Of a DNA stretch of 19,983 bases, positions 3,975 to 19,983 are shown one piece after another. The first letter of the stretch is position 1. Every line of letters begins with the position of its first letter. Source of the DNA: a virus (lineage: Duplodnaviria > Heunggongvirae > Uroviricota > Caudoviricetes); the IMG/VR virus record IMGVR_UViG_2529292923_000021, positions 1-19,983 of that record, one strand, 5' to 3'. A program made the position numbers and the translations under genes. The notes under the pieces are model-generated. The model did not search any database. It was not told where the DNA came from and was given only the letters and a program-made list of their open reading frames with translations.

Positions 3975-3982
3975 TATTCCTC

Positions 3983-4510: not shown

Positions 4511-4540
4511 AAGCAACTCCATCTGGCAGGTGAAAATCAT

Positions 4541-4760: not shown

Positions 4761-4973
4761 TTGCTGATGAATAAATTGATGAAAATCATTGAAACGCCTT
4801 TCAGCAAGATAACGGCGACGGTCGTTGTTGAACTCCGTAGCTCTGCTACTAAGGTTAAAAGCATGGCCATCTTTTGCCACCGGCAAATCTTCAATGGATT
4901 TCCCCTGCCGGTTTTTTATTCCTCACATTATCGCAGCCCCTCAGTGAAGGGCTGCTGTAATGCCTGCTCTTAC

Positions 4974-5336: not shown

Positions 5337-5357
5337 AGATTCGTGTTTTTTCTCCAG

Positions 5358-5825: not shown

Positions 5826-6319
5826 TGTTGCCCCCACAAACAGACTTCACGCTCAATCTCGCGGCGAGTCATCAGCCCTTTCCATTGCTTACCGCCAGCG
5901 TATGTCCAGCGCCGTAGCTGATCACATGCGCCTTTGATATCGCCCTGGTTTATTTTGCGAAGAAGCGTCGATGTTCTGAAATTGCCAGCGCCCACGTTGT
6001 AAACGAACGAGTAAAGAGCGCCGCGCGTTGTTTCCGGTATATCGACGTTGATGTACGGGTTAATTTGTCTGGCGACCGTGGCAAGGTCTTTATTCAGGAG
6101 GGCTTTGCATTCTGCTTCGGTATACGTTTTACCGAGCATAATGTCTTTTCCGGTGTGCCCGTAACATACAGTCCATACACCAACGATATCTTTATATGGT
6201 ATGTAGCTGACGCCTTCCAGACCATCGTTACCACTTGGGCCAGTGATTAACACAGATGCTATAGCAATAGCCCCGCCACCAATAGCCGCAGCAACGGCTT
6301 TTCGTAATGATGGAGGCAT
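5822..6319 (-). CDS. R: SAR endolysin (phage 21 R21-like lysozyme)
   Basis: 165 aa with a Gly/Ala-rich N-terminal signal-anchor-release segment ([18 protein letters not shown]) followed by a lysozyme domain; directly after the pinholin with an overlapping start and stop. Confidence 0.9.
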
Positions 6320-6534
6320 TATTCACCTCTCGCAGCCTTACGCTTGTCTTCTCTGATTTTGAAGTACAGATTTGTCAGGTAAGTCAGAAAGCCCAGAACC
6401 AGACTTCCCAGCACACCAATCGCAGCCCACTGTGACGGACTGACCTGATCAAGCCACTGTAAAAACCAGTAGCCAGCACTACCAGCGGATGTTCCGTAGG
6501 CAATGCCAGTAGAGATTTTGTCCATTGATTTCAT
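6319..6534 (-). CDS. S: Pinholin / antiholin (phage 21 S21-like), dual-start motif Met1-Lys-Ser-Met4
   Basis: 71-aa [34 protein letters not shown]... with two transmembrane segments and a charged C-terminus; matches the S21 71/68 dual-start arrangement, first gene of the lysis cassette. Confidence 0.9.
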
Positions 6535-6858
6535 AGCAACGCCTCCGCCAGTAACGGATTGCGTAGTTCTTATATTGGGAAGGGGAAAAAAGAAGGCCGC
6601 AGCGTAACTATCACTAATAAATTCAGGACAGCCAGTGGCTACGGCTCAGTTTGGGTTGTGGCGGCCGGAATCGAACCGGCTTCCATCGGTGCGCTGCCGA
6701 TTGCAGTACGCGCGGCGGTCAGCTATATGACTAGTATTTTCACTATCGCCTATCTGCTAGCTCGCCATTGAGCTTCACCACAACGATAAGAGCACTGCGC
6801 GGCACCTTTCACCAATTCCGCGAGGTCTGCGGGTTCAATGCTCTTACCTGTTGTGCAG

Positions 6859-6895
6859 AAAAAAAACCACACGGCAGCGAGTTTAAGCTGTGTGG
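6859..6895 (-). terminator. Intrinsic terminator on the minus strand (hairpin followed by T8)
   Basis: On the minus strand, GCCACACAGC...GCTGCCGTGTGG forms a stem with a perfect 6-bp CCACAC/GTGTGG core, followed immediately by eight T residues (plus-strand A-run 6859-6866). Confidence 0.45.
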
Positions 6896-6998
6896 CGAAG
6901 TTACCTCTCTTCACCAAGTATTCGGTAATAAAATAACTTGTGGTGTTCTCGTTTTTATGCCGATAAAATAAACGGTCCACTTTCAAATGGAGCGATTC

Positions 6999-7919
6999 AT
7001 GATTTTTCTCAGAACTGAAAACGGCATCGAGAAACTTGAAAACTGGGAGGAAATTATATCCAGACCAAACTTTGTCACCACTATAGACAAAGGAGTTCAA
7101 CAACTTGAGGAGATAATTGGTTACTACAAATTTAAAGAAGAAATCCACTGTGGTCTAACTGGTTGCAACCAACCACATCAAATGGGTTATATTGTAAAAA
7201 CATCTAGTGGCATTGAAACCAACATCGGAAATAAATGTGGTAAAAACGAATTTGGTGTGGAATTTGGTGAAAACGTTCTTAGTTTCAATAAATTTATGCA
7301 ACTCGAAACCAATCGGGAAATTATTAGCACCGCAAAAAGTAAATGTGAAGCGTGGCAAAAAAATATTGAAACGATACGAAATATCAAACCCACAATAGAT
7401 TATCTATCTTCTACCATCGAAAATAGTAAAAATTCCAATTACTCCGGAAGACTTGGTGCTACAGAAATTCGTTTTTTGACCAAGAACCAGACAGGCCTTG
7501 TAACCCTTTCTGAAGTGGAAACTGATAAGAATACCAAAACAATTCTGTTCGCAATGAATGAACACATGCGCGAGTCTGGAGAGGCAATAAGTGAATTCTA
7601 CATAGGAAAAGTATCATTTAGTCATGTTCTTTTACCAGAAAACAATCTTCGTGATTTTTTTGTTGCGCTCAAAGAAGATCTAAAAAAAATTCAGTGTATT
7701 GATCTACAAACAGCCCCAAGCCCAGAAATTTCTAATGTTGCCAAAATTGCCAGTTCAATCGAAGAACGAATCAAGCGATTAAAAAAACTGAAACATGAAG
7801 CCAGTAAATTCCTAACTAAAAAAAATCTGCGTCCCATCGCAAACAAAATAAAATACTCATCGACAGCGGATGAACTTGAATTCCATAATTTCGAACGCTT
7901 TTTAAAAGGGCTGAAATGA
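6999..7919 (+). CDS. Hypothetical protein, AT-rich accessory gene antisense to the late operon; function unknown
   Basis: 306-aa ORF (310 aa from the upstream ATG at 6987) with GGAG 6 nt upstream of the ATG at 6999. Base composition is visibly AT-rich compared with flanking late genes. Sits between Q and the holin on the opposite strand and ends at a hairpin terminator. Contains a small Cys/His cluster (HCGLTGCNQPH...CGK); no recognisable catalytic motif. Confidence 0.7.
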   Translation: MIFLRTENGIEKLENWEEIISRPNFVTTIDKGVQQLEEIIGYYKFKEEIHCGLTGCNQPHQMGYIVKTSSGIETNIGNKCGKNEFGVEFGENVLSFNKFMQLETNREIISTAKSKCEAWQKNIETIRNIKPTIDYLSSTIENSKNSNYSGRLGATEIRFLTKNQTGLVTLSEVETDKNTKTILFAMNEHMRESGEAISEFYIGKVSFSHVLLPENNLRDFFVALKEDLKKIQCIDLQTAPSPEISNVAKIASSIEERIKRLKKLKHEASKFLTKKNLRPIANKIKYSSTADELEFHNFERFLKGLK

Positions 7920-7939
7920 TAAAAGCCCCGAAAGGGGCT
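7917..7939 (-). terminator. tR'-like intrinsic terminator downstream of the late promoter; also closes the plus-strand gene
   Basis: AGCCCC-GAAA-GGGGCT hairpin at 7924-7939. On the minus strand it is followed by TTTTATCA, a good U-tract; on the plus strand the trailing T-tract is weaker. Confidence 0.55.
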
Positions 7940-7978
7940 TCTATCAAAATCATTTACGCATTATTCCGCATGCTTAAA

Positions 7979-8008
7979 AGAATACATGACAGATTCGGAC
8001 AAAATCAA
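7979..8008 (-). promoter_or_regulatory. Candidate late promoter pR' (minus strand) just downstream of Q
   Basis: On the minus strand, TTGATT (-35, 8008-8003) and TGtATTCT (extended -10, ending 7979) are separated by 18 nt. Position relative to Q and the downstream hairpin fits the lambdoid pR'-tR' layout. Hexamers picked by eye. Confidence 0.3.
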
Positions 8009-8033
8009 GTGCAATGTCGCAAAAACCCTAAGC

Positions 8034-8864
8034 TTAGTTCACATCATCACCAAAACTTGTCACATTCTGAAAAGCAATATCGGCCTTACGCTCTTCCTGG
8101 TGGCAAATGTCAACCAGAGAATCAAGAAACGGCTTCCAATTACGCGTCCATGTCCTGACATGTAGCTCGGGTATCCGCTTCAGTACAACTTTATATACTG
8201 TGGTAGACGGTACCGTGGAAAATCCATTTCCGCTGCAACGTTCGCAGATTTTAAACACTGGCACACCACGCTCGCTTGTGGCTTTGCGGTCCAGTACCTC
8301 TCCCTTTCCACCACAACGACACCTGGCACTTATCACTCCCTTCCCTTTACATACATCGCAAACGACTGGTACAACTTCCGTTACCTCTGTCCATTTCTCC
8401 CAGTCTGACGGTCGAACAGCACGGGAGCGACTGGCCCAATATGGTGCTTTACCCCATGGGTATGAAACCTTACGAATGACCTGCTTACGGGGTGTTAGTC
8501 CGGTACCACTGCAACTATGGCATGTTACGCTGGTGTCCGCCGATCGGGAATACTCAGCAAAAGCAAACTGCGCCAGTACCAGCATACACCAGCCAAATTC
8601 ACCACCAGCTGCTTTACGCACATTCTTCGGTGCAATTTCCATCGCGTGACGCGCCAGCGCTTGGACTGCCATCTGCTCATCAGTCTTGCTGATACCGGCC
8701 TTCCCGAAGAAGGCCGCCAAGCCAAACCGTTCACGATTGCTGGTGGTACCAATAGCCGCCATAACATCGGTGCCTGTAAGACGTTCCGGAGAGGTTCCTT
8801 TCACATCGTCGCCGATATACATTCCCTGAGGACTGAAGTATTTTAGCGATGCCTCAAGCTTCAT
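8034..8864 (-). CDS. Q: Late-gene antiterminator Q (long Q82/Qin-type)
   Basis: 276 aa with several CxxC zinc-finger-like clusters (CHSCSGTG, CDVCKGKG, CRCGGKG, CERCSGNG); located immediately upstream of the late promoter/terminator and lysis genes. Confidence 0.65.
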   Translation of the reverse strand: MKLEASLKYFSPQGMYIGDDVKGTSPERLTGTDVMAAIGTTSNRERFGLAAFFGKAGISKTDEQMAVQALARHAMEIAPKNVRKAAGGEFGWCMLVLAQFAFAEYSRSADTSVTCHSCSGTGLTPRKQVIRKVSYPWGKAPYWASRSRAVRPSDWEKWTEVTEVVPVVCDVCKGKGVISARCRCGGKGEVLDRKATSERGVPVFKICERCSGNGFSTVPSTTVYKVVLKRIPELHVRTWTRNWKPFLDSLVDICHQEERKADIAFQNVTSFGDDVN

Positions 8865-9718
8865 TATTCACACTCCCCAACCAGATTAAGAATAACCGCC
8901 GCGCCATTGTCTTTCATATATTCGCCCTTTCCGCTTGCCAAAAACCAACGACACACCTCCACTGCTTCAGCCCGTGTCACCGGTTTGATGGTCATCAGCA
9001 ATTTTTCAAGGTAGCGCTCGCGGTCATATACCGATTCGTGATGCTCAGAGTAACCATACTCATCGCCCTGTTCTTTAGACGCAGTGTGGCGAACACTGTA
9101 GAGCCAGTCCCAGTAAACAAACTCACGAACTACGTCTGACAATGTATGAGGCTCTGGCAGTACATCACGATAGCCATCAACATATGCACGACGCTGATCA
9201 TCAATTTCATTCATACGGATGCCATCAATTCTGCCCGCTGTCTTCTCGGCTGCAGTCCAGCCCCAGAGATGATCGTCGATAAATTTCTGGGAAGACTTGA
9301 TCACTCGCTCGGCTTCCACATCTTCGAGTGCTGCTTCATAGCTACCAAACGTAGCCCTGACTGATGTTGCTTTTTTGATATTCTCCCGGGCGATCCTGAT
9401 TGCCTGTGCCGGGTTATCCATGCCGATGGTACCGAAAGCAATCTGGAAAGGATCACCACCATTCGCCAGCAGATAACGCGAATAGCGTTCCTGGGCCTCT
9501 TTTGGGGAAATTTTAATTTTCACCAGCGCAGCCTCAGCATCCAGATGTGCGGGTTCGTTCAGACGGATAACCTCCAGCACCCAAAGATAAGCATCAGTCT
9601 GCTTATGCCCGGTGATTCTCCGTTGCTCTGGCAGGGGCTTGATGTTTGCGAGGGCGGAGCTGTACGCTGCCGTCGGGATGGTGAATAGTGCTTTATGTTC
9701 GTTGTTATCAGTACGCAT
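8864..9718 (-). CDS. Hypothetical protein (284 aa), function unknown
   Basis: Long ORF with a start overlapping the Q start region, in the position of nin/replication genes; no motif recognised. Confidence 0.65.
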   Translation of the reverse strand: MRTDNNEHKALFTIPTAAYSSALANIKPLPEQRRITGHKQTDAYLWVLEVIRLNEPAHLDAEAALVKIKISPKEAQERYSRYLLANGGDPFQIAFGTIGMDNPAQAIRIARENIKKATSVRATFGSYEAALEDVEAERVIKSSQKFIDDHLWGWTAAEKTAGRIDGIRMNEIDDQRRAYVDGYRDVLPEPHTLSDVVREFVYWDWLYSVRHTASKEQGDEYGYSEHHESVYDRERYLEKLLMTIKPVTRAEAVEVCRWFLASGKGEYMKDNGAAVILNLVGECE

Positions 9719-9843
9719 TACGCAACCGCCTTTTTCTTATGGAAAACCAGCTCTCGAACCTGATCACCGTTCATGAGCATATTGTTGAAATCATCGTGAT
9801 CCGGCCAGTACACGCTCACGCGCTGCAGGTCATTCTTTGCCAT
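9718..9843 (-). CDS. Possible small ORF (41 aa) overlapping the helicase stop; alternatively the tail of a frameshifted longer protein
   Basis: ATG at 9843-9841 overlaps the helicase stop; the tail MAKNDLQRVSVYWPDHDDFNNMLMNGDQVRELVFHKKKAVA looks protein-like. The same frame is open back to 10038. Confidence 0.3.
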   Translation of the reverse strand: MAKNDLQRVSVYWPDHDDFNNMLMNGDQVRELVFHKKKAVA

Positions 9844-11224
9844 CAGATTGGCATGAGCACATTCGCAAGCCGCAGCCAGCCCGGTGGCGCTGATAAAATT
9901 TGATCTGACTCCACCAGGACTGTTTCTCTGCCTTCGTCGACTGATGCTGATTTTTACCCAGCTTATTAAGTTTGCGGCTAGTGTCAGTATCAACGTCTTC
10001 ACCTCGCAGCGGCTTGTGTCCACATTTCGGGCAAACATAGACGCCAGCTGGCTTCATGTAGTGGCATTGAGGGCATTCATGTGGCAGTTTTTCGGCCCGT
10101 TCCTCAACTGCGCGGCGCGCGCTTTCCTCCATGCCATCAGACTTACCGGGAAGATCGTCGTACTCGATTGAATCCGGATAACCCAAACGGTGCACGGTGC
10201 CGCTGTGATCGAAGATAAGGCAGGACGCTTTACCCGGTGCGGTGCGCAGCCCACGCCCGAGTGCCTGCAACCAGCGAATTTCGCTTTTTGTTGGCCTGGC
10301 GTAGATGATGCAACGAACGTCACTATCGAATCCGGCTACCAGAACGCCCACACTAACGATGATTTTCGTTGCACCGGTTTCAAAGCGGTGAATGATGGTC
10401 TGGCGCTCATCTACCGGAGTGTCGGCGGTCATTACCTCAGCGTTAACACCCGCCAAGTTAAACTGGATTGTCAGATAATTGGCGTGAGCTACGTTGACGC
10501 AGAAAGCGATGGTAGGTAGATCCCGACCATTCTCCAGCCAGTTCTGTACGATGTCGCCCACCAGCGTAGAGCCGCACATGATTTCAGCCAGCTGTGTTTC
10601 GTTGTAATCGCGGCCGTACTCAAGCGAAGATGTGGTTTTAACACCTTTCAGATCCGGCTTAGTTGGCGCGTAAAATTCGTATTTACTCAGATCGCCACGC
10701 TGGATTAACTCGCCGATGGTGGTCGGCTTAATCAGTCGGTCATAGTATTTGCCCAGGAACGGAGAAAACGGAGTACCCGACAGGCCAATCACCTTTACGC
10801 CTTTGCCGCGCAGACGTTCGATATCCTTCAGGATGCGTTTTTTACGCAGGTGCGCTTCGTCGATAATCAGCAGATCGATATTTTCAGGAAAAACACGACG
10901 AATAAGCGTGTCAGCGCTGGCAATCTGAATTTTCCGGTCCGGATCGTAGTTCGGGTGATCCGCCCAGATATAACCGATTTCATCTCCAGGTAAACCATAC
11001 TGCACGAACCGATTAGCCGTCTGACCAATCAGGATGGTGTACGGAACACAGAACAGAACACGCATACCACGGCTGACAAAACCAGCAACTATGAAGGCTG
11101 CCAGACCCGTTTTACCGCTACCTGTTGGCGAGTAAACCATGAAGGTGTCGTTTGCCTTCCAGTCACGGCGCAACATGTTTAGCGCTCGCTCCTGTGCAAA
11201 ATTCGGCGTGATTGTCAGCTGCAT
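9830..11224 (-). CDS. Superfamily-2 DEAD/DEAH-box helicase with C-terminal zinc ribbon
   Basis: Walker A SPTGSGKT, motif II IIDEAH, motif III SGTP, motif VI QALGRGLR, and a C-terminal CPQCHY...CPKCGH zinc ribbon. Confidence 0.85.
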   Translation of the reverse strand: MQLTITPNFAQERALNMLRRDWKANDTFMVYSPTGSGKTGLAAFIVAGFVSRGMRVLFCVPYTILIGQTANRFVQYGLPGDEIGYIWADHPNYDPDRKIQIASADTLIRRVFPENIDLLIIDEAHLRKKRILKDIERLRGKGVKVIGLSGTPFSPFLGKYYDRLIKPTTIGELIQRGDLSKYEFYAPTKPDLKGVKTTSSLEYGRDYNETQLAEIMCGSTLVGDIVQNWLENGRDLPTIAFCVNVAHANYLTIQFNLAGVNAEVMTADTPVDERQTIIHRFETGATKIIVSVGVLVAGFDSDVRCIIYARPTKSEIRWLQALGRGLRTAPGKASCLIFDHSGTVHRLGYPDSIEYDDLPGKSDGMEESARRAVEERAEKLPHECPQCHYMKPAGVYVCPKCGHKPLRGEDVDTDTSRKLNKLGKNQHQSTKAEKQSWWSQIKFYQRHRAGCGLRMCSCQSDGKE

Positions 11225-11274
11225 TGTGCTGTCCCCGCAGTGATGAGATAATAATTTTGTGATGTGGTTTTCAT
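11215..11274 (-). CDS. Putative 19-aa upstream ORF / leader peptide overlapping the helicase start
   Basis: GAGGAGG sits 5 nt upstream of the ATG; MKTTSQNYYLITAGTAQCS ends 10 nt inside the helicase ORF. Confidence 0.25.
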   Translation of the reverse strand: MKTTSQNYYLITAGTAQCS

Positions 11275-11335
11275 GGATTCCTCCTCACATGGCTGGTGGT
11301 CTCCCCAAAGGCTGCCAGCCCCTTTCCGAATCAAC

Positions 11336-11704
11336 TCACTTAAATTTCGTCGCACGAATAACGTCAATTCCGTTCTCGCTATATCGAAGAGGGTGCTTAC
11401 CATCCCTGAGCAGGACAAAGCCTGACATCCCCTCAGGTAGCTGAGCCAGCTTCATCAACGAACGGTTGCGGGGAGACTTCTTATCGACCTCAATGGCACA
11501 CTGCTGGCCGTCTGATGATGTAACCAGGCAATCAATAAACCCTTTACGACCACCGCTAATGCTGATGCTGAAATTGCGTTGCAGATGGTATCCCTGAGAC
11601 TTGATTTTTTTCTGCATCACATAATCGAAAACGACTTTGTCATCGGAGCGAATGAATTGCTCTTCCAGGAGAGTGATTAAATTTTGCTTCAGGTCTTCAC
11701 TCAT
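11336..11704 (-). CDS. Hypothetical protein (122 aa) with a possible PD-(D/E)xK nuclease-like motif
   Basis: GFIDCLV followed 13 residues later by CAIEVDKK resembles the D...(D/E)xK arrangement of the restriction-endonuclease fold; this is a weak pattern match only. Confidence 0.55.
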   Translation of the reverse strand: MSEDLKQNLITLLEEQFIRSDDKVVFDYVMQKKIKSQGYHLQRNFSISISGGRKGFIDCLVTSSDGQQCAIEVDKKSPRNRSLMKLAQLPEGMSGFVLLRDGKHPLRYSENGIDVIRATKFK

Positions 11705-11953
11705 ACTTTTTTATCCATCTTGTACTAGCTTTCTGGTACAGCCGTTTTTTCAGGGGTATCCCCCTTTAGATCGAGATCTACCTAACCTATGTACCCGTCT
11801 GTTGGAAAAGCCTGTTCCAGTGCTTCGCACTAACACACGGGCACTCCTCCCCCTCCCCTCCTCTCATTGAATTTTGTGCGTACTCTTTAACTAGTACAAA
11901 AATGCAATGAGATTTGGGATTCAGCCACCGGACACCTTTAAGCCCGGTACCAA

Positions 11954-12247
11954 TCAGGAGCGCGATTGCGTTCCTGCCAGGGGCGGCTGAGTTGTATACC
12001 CCTGTAAAGCTCTGCCCTGATTTCTCACAAACAAGCGGAGCCTTGTGTTTGCTTCGTGCCTTGCTCTGTTCTCCTTGCGGAATGAAACAGGCTCAGCGTC
12101 AAAAGTGATTTCGTATACCTCCGCATATTTCAGGGCGACCTTCCGTCTCAGTGACGGAGGCAGCCCCTGTAACTGCTGCTGAATCCACTCTTCGTCTGCC
12201 TGGCAGTGCCTAGATGGCATCTCTGTCTGAACGTAATTCTGGGACAT
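11954..12247 (-). CDS. Hypothetical protein (97 aa), in the cII position
   Basis: ORF begins 13 nt after the cro-like stop on the same strand; no similarity to lambda CII recognised. Confidence 0.5.
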   Translation of the reverse strand: MSQNYVQTEMPSRHCQADEEWIQQQLQGLPPSLRRKVALKYAEVYEITFDAEPVSFRKENRARHEANTRLRLFVRNQGRALQGYTTQPPLAGTQSRS

Positions 12248-12259
12248 ACAAGCCCTTCA

Positions 12260-12532
12260 TCATTCGTTTTTCATAACTGCCGCATTTGTGGCTGTGTGAC
12301 TTCTACGTAACAAATCAGGGATTGCATCTTCAGGATGGGGATAAAGATCTGGTCTTAACCCATGAGGAGTAACTTTCCATTCCACAACTTCACATACACG
12401 CAAGACGAAACGAGCAGGAATTGTTCTTTTTGAAAACCATTGGTTCACAGCTTGCGGCGTAACGCCTAGATTTCGCGCTATGGCATTTTGTGCAATTAGC
12501 TCACGAAGTGCGTCGTAATCATTTCCTTTCAT
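12260..12532 (-). CDS. cro: Cro-like HTH regulator (YdaS/Cro family)
   Basis: 90 aa with an HTH (NLGVTPQAVNQWFSKRTIP) and a C-terminal LRPD motif typical of YdaS/Cro-family proteins; divergent from the cI-like gene; GGTGGG upstream of the ATG. Confidence 0.7.
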   Translation of the reverse strand: MKGNDYDALRELIAQNAIARNLGVTPQAVNQWFSKRTIPARFVLRVCEVVEWKVTPHGLRPDLYPHPEDAIPDLLRRSHTATNAAVMKNE

Positions 12533-12666
12533 CGCAACCCACCAATCTAAACTTTATAAATTCAAGATTACATCAAGTTTAAATTAACATGCAAGTCCAC
12601 AAAAGATCGAATACACTAAAATCAAGTAAAAATTTATCGAAACCAAGTAACCAGCAAGGATTAACA
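12533..12666. promoter_or_regulatory. cI/cro divergent promoter-operator region (OR-like)
   Basis: 134-bp AT-rich intergenic region between divergent repressor genes; the motif ATCAAGT recurs at 12572-12578 and 12621-12627. Confidence 0.5.
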
Positions 12667-13356
12667 ATGAAAAACTTAAAGAGCACTGAAAATCGAATTA
12701 CAAAGCTGCTACAGGAGAAAGGCTGGAGCCAAGCAGAGCTGGCCCGAAAATTAGGTGTCAGCGCACAGTCCGTACAGTACTGGACAACAGGAAAAACATT
12801 TCCAAGGGGAAACCGGCTTGCCCAGTTATCCGAAATAAGTGGTTATCCGCAATCGTGGTTTTTAGGAGAAATCACGTCACGGCAGTTCTCTTCAAAGGAA
12901 AAACATCAAGCAAGAACTGACAGTGTGGTCTTTAACGTGCTCGATGTTGAGTTTAGTTGCGGCGATGGAACACATGTCCGTGGGGACTTTATCGATGTAG
13001 TTCGCTCAATCGAGCTTGATCCTGAATATGCCCGTCGCCTTGTTGGCAATAGAGCATTTCAAAACATAGAGATTGGTAACGCAAGAGGAGATAGTATGGC
13101 TCCAACAATAGCCCCAGGAGATCTTCTTTTTCTCGATAAAACAGTGAATTACTTTGATGGTGATGGCATTTATGCTTTTTGCTTTGATGGTGAATGCTAC
13201 GTCAAAAGATTACAAAAGATAGGAAGTAAAATCATGGTGTTATCTGATAACCCAAATTACCAATCCTGGAGCATTGAAAAAGATGCTCTTGAGCTGCTTT
13301 ATATCCAATCGAAGGTAATCTCATCTGTTCCATTCAATATAAATAGATTTGGTTAA
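12667..13356 (+). CDS. cI: cI-like repressor (HTH-XRE plus S24 LexA-like peptidase domain); alternative upstream start at 12589
   Basis: N-terminal HTH (GWSQAELARKLGVSAQSVQYW), C-terminal S24 autoprotease motifs (GDSMAPT with the catalytic Ser; VKRL with the Lys). AAGGA lies 8 nt upstream of the ATG at 12667. Confidence 0.9.
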   Translation: MKNLKSTENRITKLLQEKGWSQAELARKLGVSAQSVQYWTTGKTFPRGNRLAQLSEISGYPQSWFLGEITSRQFSSKEKHQARTDSVVFNVLDVEFSCGDGTHVRGDFIDVVRSIELDPEYARRLVGNRAFQNIEIGNARGDSMAPTIAPGDLLFLDKTVNYFDGDGIYAFCFDGECYVKRLQKIGSKIMVLSDNPNYQSWSIEKDALELLYIQSKVISSVPFNINRFG

Positions 13357-13418
13357 TTATTGATTATTAAAGAAAAATTTACAAATCAAGTAAAAGAGAC
13401 GCAGAAATCAATTTTTTC

Positions 13419-13448
13419 TTGACAACTCCATCAATCAAGATCTAACAT
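13419..13448 (+). promoter_or_regulatory. pL-like early promoter
   Basis: TTGACA (13419-13424), 18-nt spacer, TAACAT (13443-13448); flanked by ATCAAGT-type motifs at 13385-13391 and, inverted, 13465-13471. Confidence 0.45.
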
Positions 13449-13450
13449 CA

Positions 13451-13497
13451 CACCATCAATTTTGACTTGATTTATTGTTAATTTTAAATTGATGGTG
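13451..13497 (+). repeat. Perfect 12-bp inverted repeat in the 5' leader of the first early gene
   Basis: CACCATCAATTT (13451-13462) and AAATTGATGGTG (13486-13497) are exact reverse complements; the 3' arm contains the GGTGA Shine-Dalgarno of the ORF starting at 13503. Confidence 0.8.
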
Positions 13498-13502
13498 ATT
13501 CA

Positions 13503-13931
13503 ATGAAAGATCTGACAACCGCTGAGATATCGAACTTAAACCACTTCGAAAAAGAATCCTTTGCATTAAATATTGCAAATCTGGTAGGTGCTGCTCGTAC
13601 TTTCCATTTAATTGATGGTGATCGCTCTAAAGAATTGGGGTTTGAAGTCATGGAGTTTGTTCATGAATACGCCCTGTCTGCTACTTATCCATTACATAAT
13701 CACATAATCAACAAACAACCAAATAAAATCCGCACCCAACGCGAAGCCTGCGGCTTAACAACCGCCGAACTCGCCAGGCTGCTCGATCTCGATGAAGAAA
13801 TTATCATCCAGTGGGAAAGCGGAGAGTACGAACCAACCATCAGCATGCTTATCCCTCTGGCTAATGTTCTTGGCTGTGATCCAATGTTGTTATTGACTGA
13901 TGCTTATAAACAAAATCAGGAGGAAGCATAA
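13503..13931 (+). CDS. HTH-XRE domain protein (142 aa) with an N-terminal extension of unknown function
   Basis: C-terminal HTH (CGLTTAELARLLDLDEEIIIQWESGEYEPTISMLIPLANVLGCDPMLL); first gene after the pL-like promoter. Confidence 0.75.
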   Translation: MKDLTTAEISNLNHFEKESFALNIANLVGAARTFHLIDGDRSKELGFEVMEFVHEYALSATYPLHNHIINKQPNKIRTQREACGLTTAELARLLDLDEEIIIQWESGEYEPTISMLIPLANVLGCDPMLLLTDAYKQNQEEA

Positions 13932-13932
13932 G

Positions 13933-14124
13933 ATGAAAATGTTCAAAGGCCTTACCAACGAACCGGAGACAGCTTTTCATCACATTGCCGTACTGCTTGA
14001 AGCGGGGTTAATCATTTCGGCTTCCGGTGATGAAGAATGTGATGAACTTTCGGATGATATCTTTTTACTGGCACAACAATACGCCAAAAGCGCATGCGAT
14101 GCATTTAAGGAGCAAAGAACATGA
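13933..14124 (+). CDS. Small acidic protein (63 aa)
   Basis: AGGAAG 7 nt upstream of the ATG at 13933 (ORF track gives a non-ATG start at 13900); acidic composition. Confidence 0.55.
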   Translation: MKMFKGLTNEPETAFHHIAVLLEAGLIISASGDEECDELSDDIFLLAQQYAKSACDAFKEQRT

Positions 14125-14312
14125 TAACTCCATTAAATATTCTTGAGGAAGTGGCGGCACAAATAAAAGAGAATACATCAATGCTTGAATTTATATTTAA
14201 GAATTCGCCCGACCAAGGAGAGACAGACGATTATTTATGCTGTCTCATTCGCTCCATGAATAAGACCTGTGAAATGGCTTACGAGTATATAGAAACACTA
14301 CGCAACGAATAA
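14121..14312 (+). CDS. Small acidic protein (63 aa)
   Basis: ATGA start/stop overlap with the preceding ORF; acidic composition. Confidence 0.55.
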   Translation: MITPLNILEEVAAQIKENTSMLEFIFKNSPDQGETDDYLCCLIRSMNKTCEMAYEYIETLRNE

Positions 14313-14394
14313 AGAACACTCAGTAAAAAATCACACATAAAAACATGACGGCCTCTGGTCGTGGATTTCCACAACCAGAAAATAATGGTGATGC

Positions 14395-14493
14395 ATGAAA
14401 AATAGAAACGCTTATAAAACCGCATTATTAATGGCTAATGCAGGATACTGGTCAGTTGCAATACTGTTTCTCAGAAAAGCATACGGGAAATAA
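14395..14493 (+). CDS. Putative small hydrophobic peptide (32 aa)
   Basis: GGTGA 4 nt upstream of the ATG; MKNRNAYKTALLMANAGYWSVAILFLRKAYGK has one hydrophobic segment. Below the ORF-track length cut-off. Confidence 0.3.
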   Translation: MKNRNAYKTALLMANAGYWSVAILFLRKAYGK

Positions 14494-14496
14494 CAA

Positions 14497-14856
14497 ATGG
14501 CATGTACAACCATTTATAAAGATCGTCGCCGCATGGTAACAGCGGCACTCCGGCGGATGCAACGTAAAACAGGTAGTAATCTGCTCGTCGTTGACCTCCC
14601 GGACGGAGAAATAACAACGATAGAAATAACTGAACAGTTCATGAACCAGTTGTTATTACGATTTGAGGGTCTTACCCGTGTTGAATATGGACGGACGGAA
14701 GGAGAAGCAACAATCCGTACCGCATACCAGAATGCCATCGGTATTAATCAACACACGGAATATCTCACTGAATCAGGGAAACTGATAGTGGACGGCCTTT
14801 TAAAAGAGGTTGTTGACTACGTAAAAGAGAAATATATCAGTGGAGGAATTAACTGA
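14497..14856 (+). CDS. Hypothetical protein (119 aa)
   Basis: ORF in the early operon, tightly packed with its neighbours; no motif recognised. Confidence 0.55.
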   Translation: MACTTIYKDRRRMVTAALRRMQRKTGSNLLVVDLPDGEITTIEITEQFMNQLLLRFEGLTRVEYGRTEGEATIRTAYQNAIGINQHTEYLTESGKLIVDGLLKEVVDYVKEKYISGGIN

Positions 14857-15065
14857 TGTCTGATTTATCCCCTCTTATACACGAAAAAGTACAGATCATT
14901 ATGACGATTGAAAATGGTCAGGTAATAAATACCCGTAAAGTTCACAATAACGAGATGATTGCCAGCATGGATACCTTCTTATGGATAGCAAAGAAAGCGG
15001 GATATCAGGTAATCGCTCCTGATCTGGAGGAAATCGGTGACATTAACAGCAATACGAATTCCTGA
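14856..15065 (+). CDS. Hypothetical protein (69 aa)
   Basis: Start overlaps the previous stop (ATGA-type coupling). Confidence 0.5.
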   Translation: MSDLSPLIHEKVQIIMTIENGQVINTRKVHNNEMIASMDTFLWIAKKAGYQVIAPDLEEIGDINSNTNS

Positions 15066-15258
15066 GTGGGTGCACCTGCAGGCGGTCCGTGTTCTCCGCC
15101 AGTTCAGAGCCAGACGAATTCATCCCTGTCGTATGCACGGCTCCGGAAACCTGAGTCTGAGGGTTAATCGCCGCTGGCGGCTGCTGTCCCGAGACGGCGG
15201 CCAGAACTGGGAAGTAATGAGCCATGAACGATACAGCAAAGTTAAGGACCGGAAATGA
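15037..15258 (+). CDS. HigB/RelE-superfamily toxin-like protein (73 aa, GTG start); possibly truncated at the N-terminus
   Basis: IHPCRMHGSGNLSLRVNRRWRLLSRDGGQNWEVMSHERY resembles the HigB core LHPLKGDREGYWSITVRANWRITFQF...DYH (recalled from memory). GGAGG lies 6 nt upstream of the GTG at 15037. Locally GC-rich compared with its AT-rich neighbours. Confidence 0.4.
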   Translation: MTLTAIRIPEWVHLQAVRVLRQFRARRIHPCRMHGSGNLSLRVNRRWRLLSRDGGQNWEVMSHERYSKVKDRK

Positions 15259-15288
15259 ACAATAAACCTTCAAACCAAAAGGAGAGTA

Positions 15289-15870
15289 TTGATGATTAAT
15301 TCAACCATTACCCCTGAACCTACATTAACAGGCATCCGTTTTGGTAATCGAATTATTGGTTATTCAACTGCGGTTCGCCAGATCGACAACGGTAACTATG
15401 ACAAACGAATTCCGGACGGGCTCGATCTGATAGCTTGCATTATGGAAGGGATTGAAAGCGGCTGGTTTATGCCGTGTATTGAAAAACAAATCATCCTATG
15501 GCGCTGGCTTGTTGTCGCCGTGTTCATTGCTGAGGAGCAGGAGAAGAACGGGACTGTCGATGTTCAGAATGACAAGGGCGGCGTAGATACAGCCGTTGTA
15601 TACACAGGAAAACCCGGTTCAATCAGCATTTATCCATGGTCTGAGCGCTTCGCGCTCGCTAACCATATCGAGGCGGGCGCAATTGAAAAATACGGGCCTG
15701 ACGTTGGCCAGCAGATGGCGCTGCGTATGTATCAGGACATGGTTGTAACTGACGAGAAATGCGGATTCAGGCTGTCAGCGATGGGCCGGGAGGGACTCAA
15801 CATACTACATGACAGCTTCATTGAACTGATTCAGAAAGACGGTATGCCAGACATGCCGGTTATGCACTGA
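15289..15870 (+). CDS. Hypothetical protein (193 aa)
   Basis: AAGGAGAG Shine-Dalgarno upstream of the ATG; no motif recognised. Confidence 0.65.
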   Translation: MMINSTITPEPTLTGIRFGNRIIGYSTAVRQIDNGNYDKRIPDGLDLIACIMEGIESGWFMPCIEKQIILWRWLVVAVFIAEEQEKNGTVDVQNDKGGVDTAVVYTGKPGSISIYPWSERFALANHIEAGAIEKYGPDVGQQMALRMYQDMVVTDEKCGFRLSAMGREGLNILHDSFIELIQKDGMPDMPVMH

Positions 15871-15881
15871 GGTGGACGAAA

Positions 15882-16628
15882 ATGAACATAGTAACGATCA
15901 ATAACAAACAGCTTCCGGCAGTCGAATATCGCGGTCAGCGTGTTGTGACGCTGGCGATGATTGATGAAGTCCACCAGCGACCGGAAGGAACAGCGCGTGC
16001 AGCATTCAACCGAAACCGTGAGCATTTCATCAGCGGTGTGGATTATGCCGAATTAGGTGCGGACGTAATACGTACGGACCTCCCGGAAGGAACATTCTCT
16101 AAATTTGCACCATCAGGGATTGTACTTTTTGAATCAGGTTACCTGATGTTGACGAAGCCATTCAATGACGCCCTTGCCTGGCAGGTTCAGCGCGAACTGG
16201 TTAACAGCTACTTCCGCACTCGCACACCGCTAACGGAAATCGAGATGATCGCTGCGATAGCCGCCGACGCTGTTCGTCAACAGAAGCGCCTGAATCATGT
16301 GGAAGAACAGCTCGAAACAGTCACAGAAGCGGTGGAAACCATCAAACGCGGAAATATGCGCGCCGGATATGTCGGTTATCGCCAGGTGGTCGCCAAAAGC
16401 GGAATGACTGATGCTAAGTGCCGCAATCTGGTCAATGCCTACAGCATCCCAACCGATACGCACGAATTTATGACACCAGATGGTCTTCTTTCGCGCCGGG
16501 CTATCGTGGAGCTGGAGCCATTCATGAAAGCATTTCATCAGATGATGTCAGAGGCAGAGCCACGTGGTACCCGCTGGTATCACCCGAAGATGGGGCTGTT
16601 TCAGGTGATTGGTTGGGAGGGTAAATAA
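15882..16628 (+). CDS. ORF6N-domain protein (KilA-N superfamily; Rha/antirepressor-like)
   Basis: N-terminal GQRVVTLAMIDEVHQRPEGTARAAFNRNREHFISGVDYAELG matches the ORF6N pattern QRVxT...NFNRNKERFxEGKHY (recalled from memory). Confidence 0.6.
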   Translation: MNIVTINNKQLPAVEYRGQRVVTLAMIDEVHQRPEGTARAAFNRNREHFISGVDYAELGADVIRTDLPEGTFSKFAPSGIVLFESGYLMLTKPFNDALAWQVQRELVNSYFRTRTPLTEIEMIAAIAADAVRQQKRLNHVEEQLETVTEAVETIKRGNMRAGYVGYRQVVAKSGMTDAKCRNLVNAYSIPTDTHEFMTPDGLLSRRAIVELEPFMKAFHQMMSEAEPRGTRWYHPKMGLFQVIGWEGK

Positions 16629-16966
16629 TGTCACTCATTACACAAAATTTCCGCCTCAATGCGCTGGCAAATCAGTATGCGGCGGCACTGCACAACCACA
16701 TATCCGCCACCAGCGGTGGTCATTTCCTGATTAATGTCAATGGGCAATCCATACGAGTAAACATCATCGGTGGGGTTAAAGGCATCAGGGACTTAATCGA
16801 TGGTTATGCTCTGAAGGCTATCAAAGAAAATTACCCCCAATGGGAAGCCGTTGGTATTCAACTGTTAAGCAAATGCGTTCGTGGAAACGAGCTGACGCAA
16901 AGCGGCAAAGAAATCTGGCAGAGCATGGTCAACGACATGAGCGATACCGTTATGGGGAACATGTAA
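16628..16966 (+). CDS. Hypothetical protein (112 aa)
   Basis: Start overlaps the previous stop; no motif recognised. Confidence 0.55.
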   Translation: MSLITQNFRLNALANQYAAALHNHISATSGGHFLINVNGQSIRVNIIGGVKGIRDLIDGYALKAIKENYPQWEAVGIQLLSKCVRGNELTQSGKEIWQSMVNDMSDTVMGNM

Positions 16967-17188
16967 ATGAAAATCCAATACCAGGACTATGGCGCCGTAG
17001 CGAACATCGTGATCACCAGTTCCTGCCTGACATTGCAAAAGCATAACCGCGTTGTTGATGCGGTGCTGTTTAATGTACAGGGGATCTCTGAAAACCGCAG
17101 CGGCTTTTTCTGGGTTAAGTCATCGTTGTCAGGAAAAACACGCGACATCCTGCGCGCCTACAAAATCGTACAGCGGGAGGCAAAGTGA
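16967..17188 (+). CDS. Hypothetical protein (73 aa)
   Basis: Begins one nucleotide after the previous stop. Confidence 0.5.
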   Translation: MKIQYQDYGAVANIVITSSCLTLQKHNRVVDAVLFNVQGISENRSGFFWVKSSLSGKTRDILRAYKIVQREAK

Positions 17189-17283
17189 TGAAGTCATTCC
17201 TCCTGTCCATACTGTTTAGTCTGCTGCTGGCGTCCGTCGTTTTCGGTACGCTGATTGAATATAAATTTTTAATGAATTACTGA
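17188..17283 (+). CDS. Putative small membrane peptide (31 aa)
   Basis: ATG overlaps the upstream stop (GTGATGA); MKSFLLSILFSLLLASVVFGTLIEYKFLMNY contains a single predicted transmembrane helix. Confidence 0.35.
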   Translation: MKSFLLSILFSLLLASVVFGTLIEYKFLMNY

Positions 17284-17465
17284 GGTGCGGGGTGGGCAAG
17301 ATCAAAAACCCAGTTGTACTTATCCATAAGCGAGAAAATAGTGACTCCTACGCCGTTACAATCACCTGCGGTAGCCAGAACTATCACGACGCCGTTCTGA
17401 TGGCGTCGATGGAACTGGATATGAGTGACGATGATGTCGATACCTAGAGTAAAACAGGCTATTAC

Positions 17466-17921
17466 ATGGCTGAAGAAATCGAGCGACTGAAACAAGCACT
17501 TTCCGCTGCGGAAAATAATCTGATTGATTCCGAATGCCTCGTAGCTGAATTAAGCAAAGCAAAGGATCACGCATATGGGCTGGTCGACACATACGACTGG
17601 CAACGTCAGCGTCTCCACGCAGCCGCTGAGAAAGTCCTCAAATGGTGCAGACAAGAAGCTGAACACCGTACCGGCGATCCAGAGAAAGCAGAAAACTATG
17701 CGTGCGTTAAAGAACTACGCGACGCATTAACTTTTTGCAAAAGTTCTGAAAGCAGCAAGAAGAAAGGCCTGACTATCACCCTGCCCGATATCACATCAAA
17801 GGCATTCTGGAGCGGTACCGGAAAAAACGCAAAATTCCATCCGGCAACCTATAAACGCTGGGTGAAAGAAGCTATTAAACGGGATTGTGTTATTGCCGGG
17901 ATCGGCGTGGAGGTGAAATGA
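17466..17921 (+). CDS. Hypothetical protein (151 aa) with a coiled-coil-like N-terminus
   Basis: ORF in the early operon; no motif recognised. Confidence 0.6.
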   Translation: MAEEIERLKQALSAAENNLIDSECLVAELSKAKDHAYGLVDTYDWQRQRLHAAAEKVLKWCRQEAEHRTGDPEKAENYACVKELRDALTFCKSSESSKKKGLTITLPDITSKAFWSGTGKNAKFHPATYKRWVKEAIKRDCVIAGIGVEVK

Positions 17922-18004
17922 TGAATTGGCCTGAAGCATTCACCGCAGTAGGAGTTGCAATAGCGGTGGCATTTATTCTGTATTCGCTTTTCCGCTGGGG
18001 ATAA
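17918..18004 (+). CDS. Putative small membrane peptide (28 aa)
   Basis: ATG overlaps the upstream stop (ATGATGA); MMNWPEAFTAVGVAIAVAFILYSLFRWG contains a single hydrophobic helix. Confidence 0.35.
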   Translation: MMNWPEAFTAVGVAIAVAFILYSLFRWG

Positions 18005-18008
18005 AGGA

Positions 18009-18251
18009 ATGTTCGCTCTGATTCAACGTGGTCAGATATACACCGATAGTGCTGGCTACCCGATAAAAATTATTCGCTGCATAAACAACACTGTGTTGTA
18101 CAGAAGAATGGATGGGCGAACACAGTCGGTAAAAATAAACGATTTTAATGAACTGTTTGAACGGATCGATCACCAGGAATACCGACAAATTCTGGCAGAA
18201 ACAGAGCAGGAAGCTCATCTGAAAAAATTACGAGCCATGAAAAGGAAGTAA
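18009..18251 (+). CDS. Hypothetical protein (80 aa)
   Basis: AAAGGA Shine-Dalgarno upstream; basic C-terminus. Confidence 0.55.
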   Translation: MFALIQRGQIYTDSAGYPIKIIRCINNTVLYRRMDGRTQSVKINDFNELFERIDHQEYRQILAETEQEAHLKKLRAMKRK

Positions 18252-18254
18252 AGA

Positions 18255-18401
18255 ATGAATAAAGCATTTGAACGATGGGTCCACCAGCGTTACGGCAATC
18301 GCTATGACCTGACACGAGATGTTGACGGTTTCTACTGTCGTGAAATTGTGAAACGAATGTTTGAAGTGTGGTGCCACTGCCGTGGGCTGAGTGTTGTGTG
18401 A
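18255..18401 (+). CDS. Hypothetical small protein (48 aa)
   Basis: AAGGAAG 7 nt upstream of the ATG at 18255; below the ORF-track length cut-off. Confidence 0.4.
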   Translation: MNKAFERWVHQRYGNRYDLTRDVDGFYCREIVKRMFEVWCHCRGLSVV

Positions 18402-18408
18402 GGTTGGC

Positions 18409-18663
18409 ATGCAGACAATCATCTATCAGATAACCCCCAGCAAATGGTGTACGGAGAGAGTCCTCATTGCATCAACAGGGCTAAAGCCTGGCACCATTGA
18501 GCGGGCAAGAAGAAAGTCATGGATGCAGGGAAAAGAATACCGCCATTACGCTGTAGAAGGTGATCCGGGGCACTACAGTGAATGCCTGTACAACATCGAA
18601 GAAATTATGCGATGGATCGAAAACCAGAAACAACCAGGTGCCAAAAATGCAAGTTCCGGTTAA
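18409..18663 (+). CDS. xis: Excisionase-like protein (putative Xis); ORF track start at 18391
   Basis: Small basic protein immediately upstream of the integrase on the same strand; called by position and size. Confidence 0.5.
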   Translation: MQTIIYQITPSKWCTERVLIASTGLKPGTIERARRKSWMQGKEYRHYAVEGDPGHYSECLYNIEEIMRWIENQKQPGAKNASSG

Positions 18664-18696
18664 CCTGTTAATGCTCCTGGACGTCTGGGAGGTTTA

Positions 18697-19983
18697 ATGA
18701 GTAACGCATCATACCCGACAGGCGTTGAAAACCATGGAGGATCACTCCGTATATGGTTTCACTATAATGGCAAACGTGTCAGAGAAAACCTCGGTGTTCC
18801 TGACACAGCCAAAAACCGGAAGATCGCTGGTGAACTTCGCACTTCCGTTTGTTTTGCAATCAGAATGGGGAGTTTCGACTACGCCGCGCAGTTCCCTAAT
18901 TCCCCTAACCTGAAACACTTTGGTCTGGGAAAAAGAGAGATAACCGTTAAGGCACTTTCGGAAAAATGGTTGGACCTTAAGAAAATTGAGATTTGTGCGA
19001 ATGCACTTAACCGTTACCAGTCAGTAATTAAAAACATGTTACCAATGTTAGGTGAAAAAAAACTGGTTTCATCCATAACAAAAGAGGATTTACTTTTCGT
19101 AAGGAGAGATTTGTTGACCGGTTACCAAAAGCTTTCTAATGGAAAGACTTCTTCCATAAAAGGGCGCTCAGTGGTCACGGTAAACTACTATATGACAACC
19201 ATAGCTGGAATGTTTCAATTTGCAACAGATAATGGTTATACCTCAGGAAACCCATTTAACGGTCTGGCTCCCTTAAAAAAGTCCAAGGTAAAACCAGATC
19301 CTCTCACCCGTGACGAATTTATTCGTTTTATTGAGGCTTGCCGTCATCAACAAACAAAAAACCTGTGGATTCTCGCTGTATACACGGGTATTCGTCACGG
19401 GGAGTTGGTATCGCTGGCATGGGAAGATATAGACCTTAAAGCAAGGACTATAACCATCCGTAGAAATTATACAAAACTTGGCGAATTCACTCCACCAAAA
19501 ACCGATGCAGGCACCGGAAGGACAATTCATCTGGTTCAACCAGCTATTGATGCTCTTAAAAGCCAGGCGGAAATGACCATGCTTGGAAAGCAACATTCTG
19601 TAGAGGTGAAGCAGAGGGAATATGGGAGAACTGCTGTGCATAAATGCACTTTTGTTTTTAGTCCTCAGGTAACAAAACAGCAGCAGTTGTCCGGACCTCA
19701 CTACAAGGTTGACTCCATCAGGGAGTCATGGACAAGTATCTTAAAACGCGCAGGTCTGAGACACAGAAAATCGTACCAATCCAGGCATACTTATGCATGC
19801 TGGTCACTTGCCGCAGGAGCTAATCCTAGTTTTATCGCAAGCCAGATGGGCCACACAAACGCACAAATGGTATTCAATGTTTACGGAGCATGGATGAAAG
19901 ACAACAATCACGAACAGATAGAACTCCTTAACAAAAGACTATCTGAAAGTGTCCCATGTATGCCCCATAAGAAAGTTGGGTAA
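18697..19983 (+). CDS. int: Tyrosine site-specific integrase (phage integrase family)
   Basis: 428 aa; catalytic-domain motifs include IRHGEL, HxxR-type SRHTYACW and the C-terminal Tyr region NVYGAWM. Last gene of the early operon; its stop codon is the last three bases of the window. Confidence 0.9.
   Translation: MSNASYPTGVENHGGSLRIWFHYNGKRVRENLGVPDTAKNRKIAGELRTSVCFAIRMGSFDYAAQFPNSPNLKHFGLGKREITVKALSEKWLDLKKIEICANALNRYQSVIKNMLPMLGEKKLVSSITKEDLLFVRRDLLTGYQKLSNGKTSSIKGRSVVTVNYYMTTIAGMFQFATDNGYTSGNPFNGLAPLKKSKVKPDPLTRDEFIRFIEACRHQQTKNLWILAVYTGIRHGELVSLAWEDIDLKARTITIRRNYTKLGEFTPPKTDAGTGRTIHLVQPAIDALKSQAEMTMLGKQHSVEVKQREYGRTAVHKCTFVFSPQVTKQQQLSGPHYKVDSIRESWTSILKRAGLRHRKSYQSRHTYACWSLAAGANPSFIASQMGHTNAQMVFNVYGAWMKDNNHEQIELLNKRLSESVPCMPHKKVG

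Follow-up and report, generated by a model that had tools for sequence, protein, structure and literature searches.

In the window analysed here, a stretch of 19,983 nucleotides comprising positions 1 to 19,983 of IMG/VR virus record IMGVR_UViG_2529292923_000021 (Caudoviricetes), three small plus-strand open reading frames (ORFs) lie directly behind the gene for a CI-type repressor: ORF1 (13503-13931, 142 amino acids (aa)), ORF2 (13933-14124, 63 aa) and ORF3 (14121-14312, 63 aa). Our tentative reading is that they form an early regulatory module built of hairpin protein-protein interaction units, with a way of working like that of the regulator SinR and its small partner SinI. All three proteins are predicted to hold a two-helix hairpin module, ORF1 and ORF3 from structure models and ORF2 from its homology to the ORF1 hairpin. 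In ORF1 the hairpin precedes a helix-turn-helix (HTH) domain of the XRE family, and it appears to be inherited together with the repressor gene.

Domain composition of ORF1, ORF2 and ORF3

The C-terminal part of ORF1 (aa 77-142; 13731-13931, plus strand), common to all immunity types described below, matches Pfam HTH_3 over residues 76-127 (E 3.5e-11; 43.4 bits against a cutoff of 23). With its five helices of the 434/P22 type and a score above the Pfam gathering threshold, it belongs to the XRE/HTH_3 family. AlphaFold2 models the five-helix domain at a predicted local distance difference test (pLDDT) score of 80-90 and joins it through a low-confidence or disordered linker to the N-terminal domain (aa 1-76; 13503-13730, plus strand), which takes the form of an antiparallel hairpin with helices at residues 14-36 and 40-68 (pLDDT about 70). 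The isoelectric point (pI) is 4.7 for the whole protein and 4.3 for the HTH half. A Foldseek search with the ORF1 model returned generic XRE domains only, including the N-terminal domain of P22 c2 (template modelling score 0.82 on the target).

The PDB sequence that best matches the HTH (13713-13928) is 2mez, the HTH of an MBF1-like multiprotein bridging factor (E 4e-6); P22 c2 ranks behind it, and ribosome-bound EDF1 is also found among the fold matches. MBF1-type HTHs bind ribosomes and proteins, not operators; the match of the ORF1 domain to them is probably due to the general similarity among XRE domains. In the motif DPMWLLTG, which closes the HTH domain, the window's ORF1 carries L129 and D133 (13887-13901) instead of the W and G present in at least 90% of the aligned relatives.

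Residues 1-72 of ORF1 have no Pfam match, and aa 16-61 match PHROG 4587 (E 2.9e-7), which is the family of ORF2 (E 1.9e-33). Profile alignment with hhalign relates ORF2 to the E-type N-terminal domains of other loci with a P of 2e-8 over 59 columns and to the B-type domains with a P of 2.4e-5, and a joint alignment of the hairpins with ORF2 displays a conserved F-x-G-L ... NI..L..AG ... YA..A pattern. On account of these three lines of comparison and a free-standing homologue in phage EKP1 (see below), the N-terminal domain of ORF1 and ORF2 are taken as paralogous members of one family.

ORF3 matches a different family, PHROG 6882 (E 7e-40), and is modelled by AlphaFold2 as a two-helix hairpin with helices at residues 4-27 and 34-62 (pLDDT 85). 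We considered it as a distant member of the ORF2 family and rejected this, the hhalign probability being 0.1% and profile similarity being absent. Foldseek searches of PDB and BFVD with the ORF3 model gave nothing below E 0.1, the best matches being unrelated helical hairpins (0.29 in PDB and 0.17 in BFVD). Sequence and profile searches of PDB likewise gave nothing relevant for ORF2 or ORF3, the profile matches being designed helical repeats only. Each of the two proteins has a net charge of about -7 and 12 Asp and Glu residues in 63 aa (about 19%).

An earlier note, made from the DNA sequence without database searches, had given the coordinates and sizes of the three genes (142, 63 and 63 aa) exactly, and its descriptions of a C-terminal HTH in ORF1 and of two small acidic proteins (pI 4.45 for ORF2 and 4.31 for ORF3) are borne out by the analyses above. 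The novel N-terminal domain that it proposed indeed has no counterpart in Pfam but is no orphan, since it shares PHROG 4587 with ORF2.

Immunity types and the boundary inside ORF1

Besides the window, the 86 loci of our comparison comprise five annotated records and 80 viral contigs, with many near-identical sequences among them. Across all 86, ORF1 hairpin types pair one-to-one with the types of the neighbouring CI: hairpins A, A2 and A3 accompany R3 repressors, B accompanies R2, C accompanies R1, D accompanies R4 and E accompanies R5, and the window itself has a type A hairpin and an R3 repressor. The promoter-operator regions of the immunity types are unrelated to one another. The HTH half, ORF2 and ORF3 are common to several immunity types, with both small genes present in 29 loci, and identical ORF2 sequences are found behind A, B, C and D hairpins. 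Fourteen matches in C-type loci that had the appearance of ORF2 without ORF3 turned out to be a different hairpin protein, PHROG 5451-like, and not ORF2. Among ORF1 relatives in general, a nearly invariant XRE domain stands behind at least seven very different N-terminal types, and it is duplicated in relatives of about 230 aa.

In Megablast comparisons with other immunity types, homology to the window sets in at 13731; this is codon 77 of ORF1, where the HTH domain has its first residue. Within three types, the synonymous divergences of hairpin and cI were 0.011 and 0.011, 0.100 and 0.122, and 0.050 and 0.050, while that of the HTH segment was 2-10 times that of the hairpin. Because the divergence of the hairpin equals that of cI and the divergence of the HTH segment is higher, these comparisons place the hairpin genealogically in the immunity module and set a recombination boundary inside ORF1, exactly at its domain junction.

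At the next level up, the hairpins of subtypes A, A2 and A3 share 51-59% identity against 86-93% for the flanking CI. When more distant loci are compared, similarity among hairpins follows that of the CI N-terminal domain, in pairs that are not phylogenetically independent. An R5-like CI N-terminal domain is paired with an E-like hairpin in Escherichia phage SaltyDalty, whose CI C-terminal domain is of another type, and in locus L090. A counter-example is Klebsiella phage ST16-OXA48phi5.3 (phi5.3), whose CI is 78% identical to that of the window, yet which has no A-type hairpin gene.

Members of the hairpin family in other phages

Free-standing hairpins, without an HTH protein, are the first genes after cI in Escherichia phages SaltyDalty and Fraca, in 'Elizabethkingia' phage EKP1 and in phi5.3, and the same arrangement occurs in two IMG/VR contigs. 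Distant homologues of ORF2 occupy the corresponding position in SaltyDalty, Fraca, EKP1 and loci L090 and L091. ORF3 homologues (43-49% identity) stand directly behind ORF2-like genes in other phages; in SaltyDalty, phi5.3 and L091 the protein with the ORF3-like hairpin also includes an additional helical domain, which is encoded by a separate gene in EKP1. In this last phage the genes all overlap, in the order of a 67-aa B-like hairpin (PHROG 4587, E 1.7e-11), a 63-aa ORF2 homologue and a 76-aa ORF3 homologue.

The immunity and early region of EKP1 (L088, OM284015.1) is typically enterobacterial-lambdoid: it contains genes for ORF6N and DUF4222, its CI shares 58% identity with that of an Escherichia coli prophage, and its ORF2 and ORF3 homologues are 43-49% identical to those of the window. 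Given this enterobacterial type of CI, early genes and ORF2/ORF3 homologues, the stated Flavobacteriia host of EKP1 looks doubtful.

An exhaustive profile search found 46 clusters of the family among 1.84 billion representative proteins, most of them stand-alone proteins of about 60-90 aa. Twelve of the 46 (about a quarter) are confirmed fusions of a hairpin to an XRE domain, the hairpin always being N-terminal and joined through a linker, and P0204 is a possible thirteenth, its sequence ending at 120 aa with no Pfam HTH match. Pfam HTH_3 lies C-terminal to the hairpin in nine of the ten long members tested. The HTH sequences of the fusion members fall into several types, and in some of them the recognition helix is of the canonical polar kind. 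One of them, P0202 (L092), carries a B-like hairpin on a different, canonical HTH behind an R2-like CI, has B-type-like operators and is followed by small acidic genes. A search of viral contigs with P0211 found nothing. The hairpin family is thus small, uncharacterised and confined to a narrow group of phages. In the literature on phiP27 L10, on phi467 and on small acidic anti-defence proteins of lambdoid phages, we found no functional study of ORF1, ORF2 or ORF3.

Position and control of the three genes

Across the early region the window shares 99.8% identity with Escherichia phage phi467 and with prophages in a few E. coli chromosomes, in whose annotations two of the three genes are 'hypothetical proteins'. 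It is an E. coli prophage of the phi467/phiP27 type, and its layout is lambdoid. The repressor gene (12667-13356, plus strand, 229 aa, immunity type R3) encodes Peptidase_S24 (E 8e-17) and HTH_3 (E 7e-9) domains and is annotated by PGAP as an XRE/LexA family regulator. At the left edge of the immunity module, divergent from cI, is a Cro-like gene of 90 aa (12260-12532, minus strand), annotated as a transcriptional regulator; it matches Pfam YdaS_toxin (E 5.9e-13), in this case a Cro-like HTH family, and P22_Cro (E 7e-5).

Between cI and ORF1 lies a 146-bp control region resembling lambda pL/OL (13357-13502, plus strand), with a promoter, operator half-sites and an inverted repeat. The best promoter match in the region is TTGACA-18-TAACAT at 13419-13448 (10 of 12 positions). 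The 13-mer AAATCAAGTAAAA has exact copies at 12619-12631, between cro and cI, and at 13383, upstream of the promoter, and an inverted copy at 13461, just downstream of it. Candidate operator half-sites of the ATCAAG type are found at 13385, 13434 and 13466 (the last inverted), one copy of ATCAAG/CTTGAT thus lying inside the promoter spacer and another just downstream. The two intergenic regions that flank cI account for 1.4% of the window and hold five of its 17 copies of ATCAAG/CTTGAT (binomial P 3e-6). Because these operator sequences are common to both regions flanking cI, the pL-like promoter of ORF1, ORF2 and ORF3 is probably repressed by the CI-type protein.

No plus-strand promoter and no strong terminator were predicted over about 2.7 kb downstream of the three genes, and hence they are the promoter-proximal genes of a long operon. 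Taken with the candidate operators, this suggests that they are the first genes of a repressor-controlled leftward operon running towards the integrase gene, in the slot that N occupies in lambda. The proposal in the earlier note of a pL-like promoter and of the lambda N slot is well supported by the promoter match, the operators shared across cI, the LexA/S24-type CI and the Cro-like gene on the opposite side.

The tight packing for coupled translation that had been described is likewise present, with a strong Shine-Dalgarno sequence before each of the two small genes. ORF1 and ORF2 are joined as TAA-G-ATG, with one base between them and AGGAGG 8 nt upstream of the ORF2 ATG, and ORF2 and ORF3 overlap in ATGA, with AAGGAG 8 nt upstream of the ORF3 start. 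The annotated start of ORF2 is the ATG at 13933; a longer ORF of 74 aa from 13900 is not the annotated start. Ratios of nonsynonymous to synonymous polymorphism (pN/pS) among related loci are 0.20 for ORF2, 0.14 for ORF3 and 0.10-0.24 for cI. For the hairpin domain of ORF1 the ratio is 0.44 in the window's type and 0.06-0.12 in two other types. As these values (0.06-0.44) are comparable to those of cI, the three are real genes under purifying selection.

A perfect 12-nt inverted repeat, CACCATCAATTT ... AAATTGATGGTG, occupies 13451-13462 and 13486-13497, its arms 23 nt apart. It spans the likely 5' untranslated region, overlaps the weak ribosome-binding site of ORF1 and stops 5 nt short of the ORF1 start codon, and it is partly conserved in subtypes A2 and A3. 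The repeat could be an extra operator pair or a hairpin that masks translation.

A proposed hairpin-based regulatory module

In SinR/SinI, the XRE repressor SinR and its small paralogue SinI join their two-helix hooks in a four-helix bundle, which abolishes DNA binding (PMC3163267). By analogy, ORF1 would be an XRE-family regulator whose N-terminal hairpin serves as an oligomerisation or partner-binding domain and is inherited within the immunity module, together with cro, cI and the operators. ORF2 would be a free-standing copy of a hairpin of the ORF1 kind and ORF3 a second, unrelated hairpin. Hairpins would associate into helix bundles, and the free ones may alter how hairpin-bearing regulators oligomerise or which partners they bind, in the way that SinI acts on SinR. 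The recurrent fusion of the hairpin to varied XRE domains would be expected of an oligomerisation or partner domain of DNA-binding regulators. The B-like hairpin that P0202 carries on another HTH behind an R2-like CI, and the CI-type control of the operon, also speak for the module. Hairpin-hairpin association, DNA binding by ORF1 and the regulatory target are each things that we infer, and the module as a whole is proposed tentatively.

A number of observations weigh against this proposal. DNA binding by the ORF1 HTH is itself doubtful, because its recognition helix starts with D-E-E and the domain has a net charge of about -7 (13 acidic and 6 basic residues); in a phmmer alignment with P22 c2, D97-E98-E99 face S31-N32-V33, with Q103-W104-E105 conserved. 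The sequences upstream of ORF1 in the several immunity types have no conserved operator in common. ORF2 hardly varies behind hairpin types A, B, C, D and E, some of which have no detectable similarity to it, and its hhalign match to the window's own A-type hairpin is weak (P 0.011); since ORF2 thus does not co-vary with the hairpin type of its neighbour, it would not be a dedicated partner of the SinI kind. About half of the loci with an ORF1-type gene lack ORF2 and ORF3. Lastly, EKP1, SaltyDalty, L090 and L091 have arrays of hairpins with no hairpin-HTH protein, and so the hairpins must have another target in those phages.

Such arrays fit an alternative in which the hairpins are anti-defence or host-takeover effectors that inhibit host immunity or housekeeping proteins, ORF1 being an effector fused to an HTH like that of anti-CRISPR-associated (Aca) proteins, as in AcrIIA1. 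We regard this as possible but on the unlikely side. The proteins are small and acidic and would be the first expressed after derepression, ORF2 and ORF3 come and go among close relatives, and paralogous modules form variable tandem arrays; the hairpins of A, A2 and A3 have diverged to 51-59% identity while CI has kept 86-93%, and operons of anti-CRISPR (Acr) and Aca genes, like the HTH-bearing AcrIIA1, provide precedents. However, the proteins match no anti-defence family in PADLOC, Pfam or NCBIfam and nothing in PDB, PADLOC giving generic HTH matches (RmrA, CapH) for ORF1 and nothing for ORF2 or ORF3. The DNA mimicry or anti-defence role suggested in the earlier note thus found no positive evidence from PADLOC, PDB or Foldseek: ORF3 is a plain two-helix hairpin with no match below E 0.1, no fold match to a DNA mimic or known inhibitor was obtained, and an Asp and Glu content of about 19% is a moderate charge density. 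Within types the hairpin is under purifying, not diversifying, selection (pN/pS 0.06-0.44). The type-specific promoter regions hold no conserved operator for the conserved HTH, which disfavours autoregulation of the Aca kind, and a strict tie to the immunity module would not be expected of a host-directed effector.

That tie could instead mean that the first hairpin binds its cognate CI or Cro, as an early anti-repressor or co-regulator that locks in lysis, comparable to P1 Coi, TP901-1 MOR or 186 Tum. The one-to-one pairing with CI type over 86 loci, its persistence at deep divergence and across exchanges of parts (L092; SaltyDalty and L090) and the equal synonymous divergence of hairpin and cI all agree with such a partnership. 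Linkage suffices to explain them, however, since the hairpin code abuts the type-specific operators and the nearest conserved sequence for recombination is the HTH part; moreover, the pairs behind the correlation are not phylogenetically independent, and phi5.3 has a CI 78% identical to that of the window without an A-type hairpin. We consider direct binding to CI or Cro unlikely. A competition between phages is a further reading, to which we give a very low probability. The hairpins would be immunity-linked specificity modules, with the first hairpin of each phage matched to the type of its repressor, and free hairpins such as ORF2 would form poisoned bundles with the hairpin-HTH regulators or repressors of heteroimmune prophages while sparing the phage's own switch. 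This would suit the finding that ORF2 most resembles hairpins of the E and B types, which go with other immunity types, and not its own A type.

Scarcely credible, in our judgement, is a unit of the toxin-antitoxin kind, with ORF1 as a HigA/MqsA-type antitoxin or regulator and ORF2 and ORF3 as cargo or toxin. ORF1 does have a C-terminal XRE HTH with an extra N-terminal domain, it has weak sub-threshold matches to MqsA models (Pfam E 0.047; NCBIfam TIGR03830 E 1.4e-5), and a gene for a ParE-like toxin domain (15070-15258) lies about 750 bp downstream. These antitoxin matches cover the generic HTH only and fall below curated cutoffs (14 against 30 bits and 25 against 62 bits), and thus the HigA/MqsA-like architecture assigned to ORF1 in the earlier note was not upheld (Pfam MqsA_antitoxin 14.2 bits against a cutoff of 30). 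The N-terminal domain has no cysteines, hence no zinc-binding motif and no MqsA zinc site. The suggestion in the earlier note of an antitoxin-like regulator with cargo fails in that no toxin gene (MqsR, HigB) is adjacent, the neighbours being cI and ORF2/ORF3. Neither ORF2 nor ORF3 matches a toxin family, and the ParE-like gene, which is not adjacent, comes with an upstream partner of its own, the ORF at 14856-15065. The unit is promoter-proximal in a long CI-controlled operon and not an autonomous two-gene cassette. With its defining features missing, the toxin-antitoxin reading is largely refuted by the sequence comparisons.

Neighbouring genes

A gene for a 32-aa basic peptide, MKNRNAYKTALLMANAGYWSVAILFLRKAYGK, follows the three genes at 14395-14493 (plus strand). 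Its motif AYKTA...LRKAYG is kept 3' of hairpin genes in SaltyDalty, Klebsiella phi5.3, EKP1 and L090, the loci with the motif being L086, L087, L088, L090 and L003, and the gene possibly belongs to the same cassette. The peptide has no Pfam or PHROG match. Upstream of it is a partly conserved element of about 35 nt (about 14350-14385) with the palindrome CTGGTCGTGGA/TCCACAACCAG; Rfam has no family in the window or around this element.

Further downstream, the ParE-like toxin domain gene (15070-15258, plus strand; PF24732, E 4.7e-19) starts 5 bp behind a 69-aa acidic ORF (14856-15065, plus strand) of PHROG 340 with a weak match to the C-termini of anti-repressors, and together they may form a toxin-antitoxin pair inside the early-left operon.

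In the other part of the window, the stretch 6300-11300 is not collinear with phi467 (L001). It includes the Q antiterminator gene (8034-8864, minus strand) and a helicase ORF of 464 aa (552 aa in phi467). Between Q and the lysis genes are plus-strand ORFs of 310 aa (6987-7919) and 80 aa (7916-8158) with no Pfam match, and no stx genes are found in the window where phi467 carries them.

Implications and comparison with known systems

Many enterobacterial lambdoid prophages, including Shiga-toxin (Stx) phages of the phiP27/phi467 type, do not have lambda N, and in these the hairpin proteins would be made first after loss of the repressor. If the hairpins do modulate the lysis-lysogeny switch, they would bear on prophage induction and on toxin release in Stx-carrying relatives; if they are counter-defence factors, they would represent a new family. 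ORF1 is also a clean example of mosaicism at the level of domains, with the boundary of an immunity module inside a gene at its domain junction. Our results define the hairpin genes as testable candidates and do not overturn current understanding.

The candidates can be set against several known systems. In lambda, the antiterminator N is basic, disordered and RNA-binding, and CIII, an inhibitor of FtsH, consists of one amphipathic helix. Like these and the other pL-proximal genes of lambda, Ral and Kil, the three genes come directly after the repressor gene and pL under CI-operator control, are small and would be made first, but they have no sequence or fold similarity to the lambda products and encode acidic two-helix hairpins. 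As no strong plus-strand terminator was predicted in the 2.7 kb downstream, the operon does not obviously require N-type antitermination at its start. A likeness to lambda CII, a small HTH-containing phage regulator near the immunity region, has found its way into annotation, in 'CII-like regulator' for PHROG 4836 and 'putative CII repressor' for ASU11 gp50. These labels find no support here, as there is no match to Pfam Phage_CII and the gene is on the cI/pL side and not after cro.

Acr operons with Aca genes also combine small, often acidic early proteins with an HTH regulator, and in AcrIIA1 an HTH and an inhibitor are fused in one polypeptide. Here, unlike in those systems, the HTH gene comes first, the HTH is C-terminal, control is by a CI-regulated pL and a conserved Aca-type operator is absent; in the libraries searched (Pfam, NCBIfam and PADLOC) we found no homology to any Acr or Aca family. 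Ocr and ArdA resemble ORF2 and ORF3 in being early and acidic. Such DNA mimics have a very high density of negative charge, with acidic residues making up about 25-30% of Ocr or ArdA, and a fold that displays its carboxylates in a DNA-like array, unlike ORF2 and ORF3 with a net charge of only -7 per 63 aa, a plain hairpin fold and no match. MqsA and HigA have the same order of an additional N-terminal domain and an XRE HTH in the C-terminal half as ORF1, which differs from them in its missing zinc-binding CxxC motif, in its missing partner toxin and in scores below curated cutoffs.

Against SinR/SinI, the order of domains is reversed, with the hairpin N-terminal in ORF1, and the hairpin is longer (about 55 aa against about 37 aa). 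The setting is that of phage immunity, ORF2 does not change in step with the type of hairpin in ORF1, and Pfam scans of ORF1, ORF2 and ORF3 gave no match to the SinI family at E<=1. The plan of the module is nevertheless alike in both parts. ORF1 has, like SinR and like SlrR of the SlrR/SlrA pair in Bacillus subtilis, an XRE HTH of the 434/P22-like kind, a flexible linker and a two-helix module, and in each case a small paralogue of that module (about 57-63 aa) is encoded by a separate gene.

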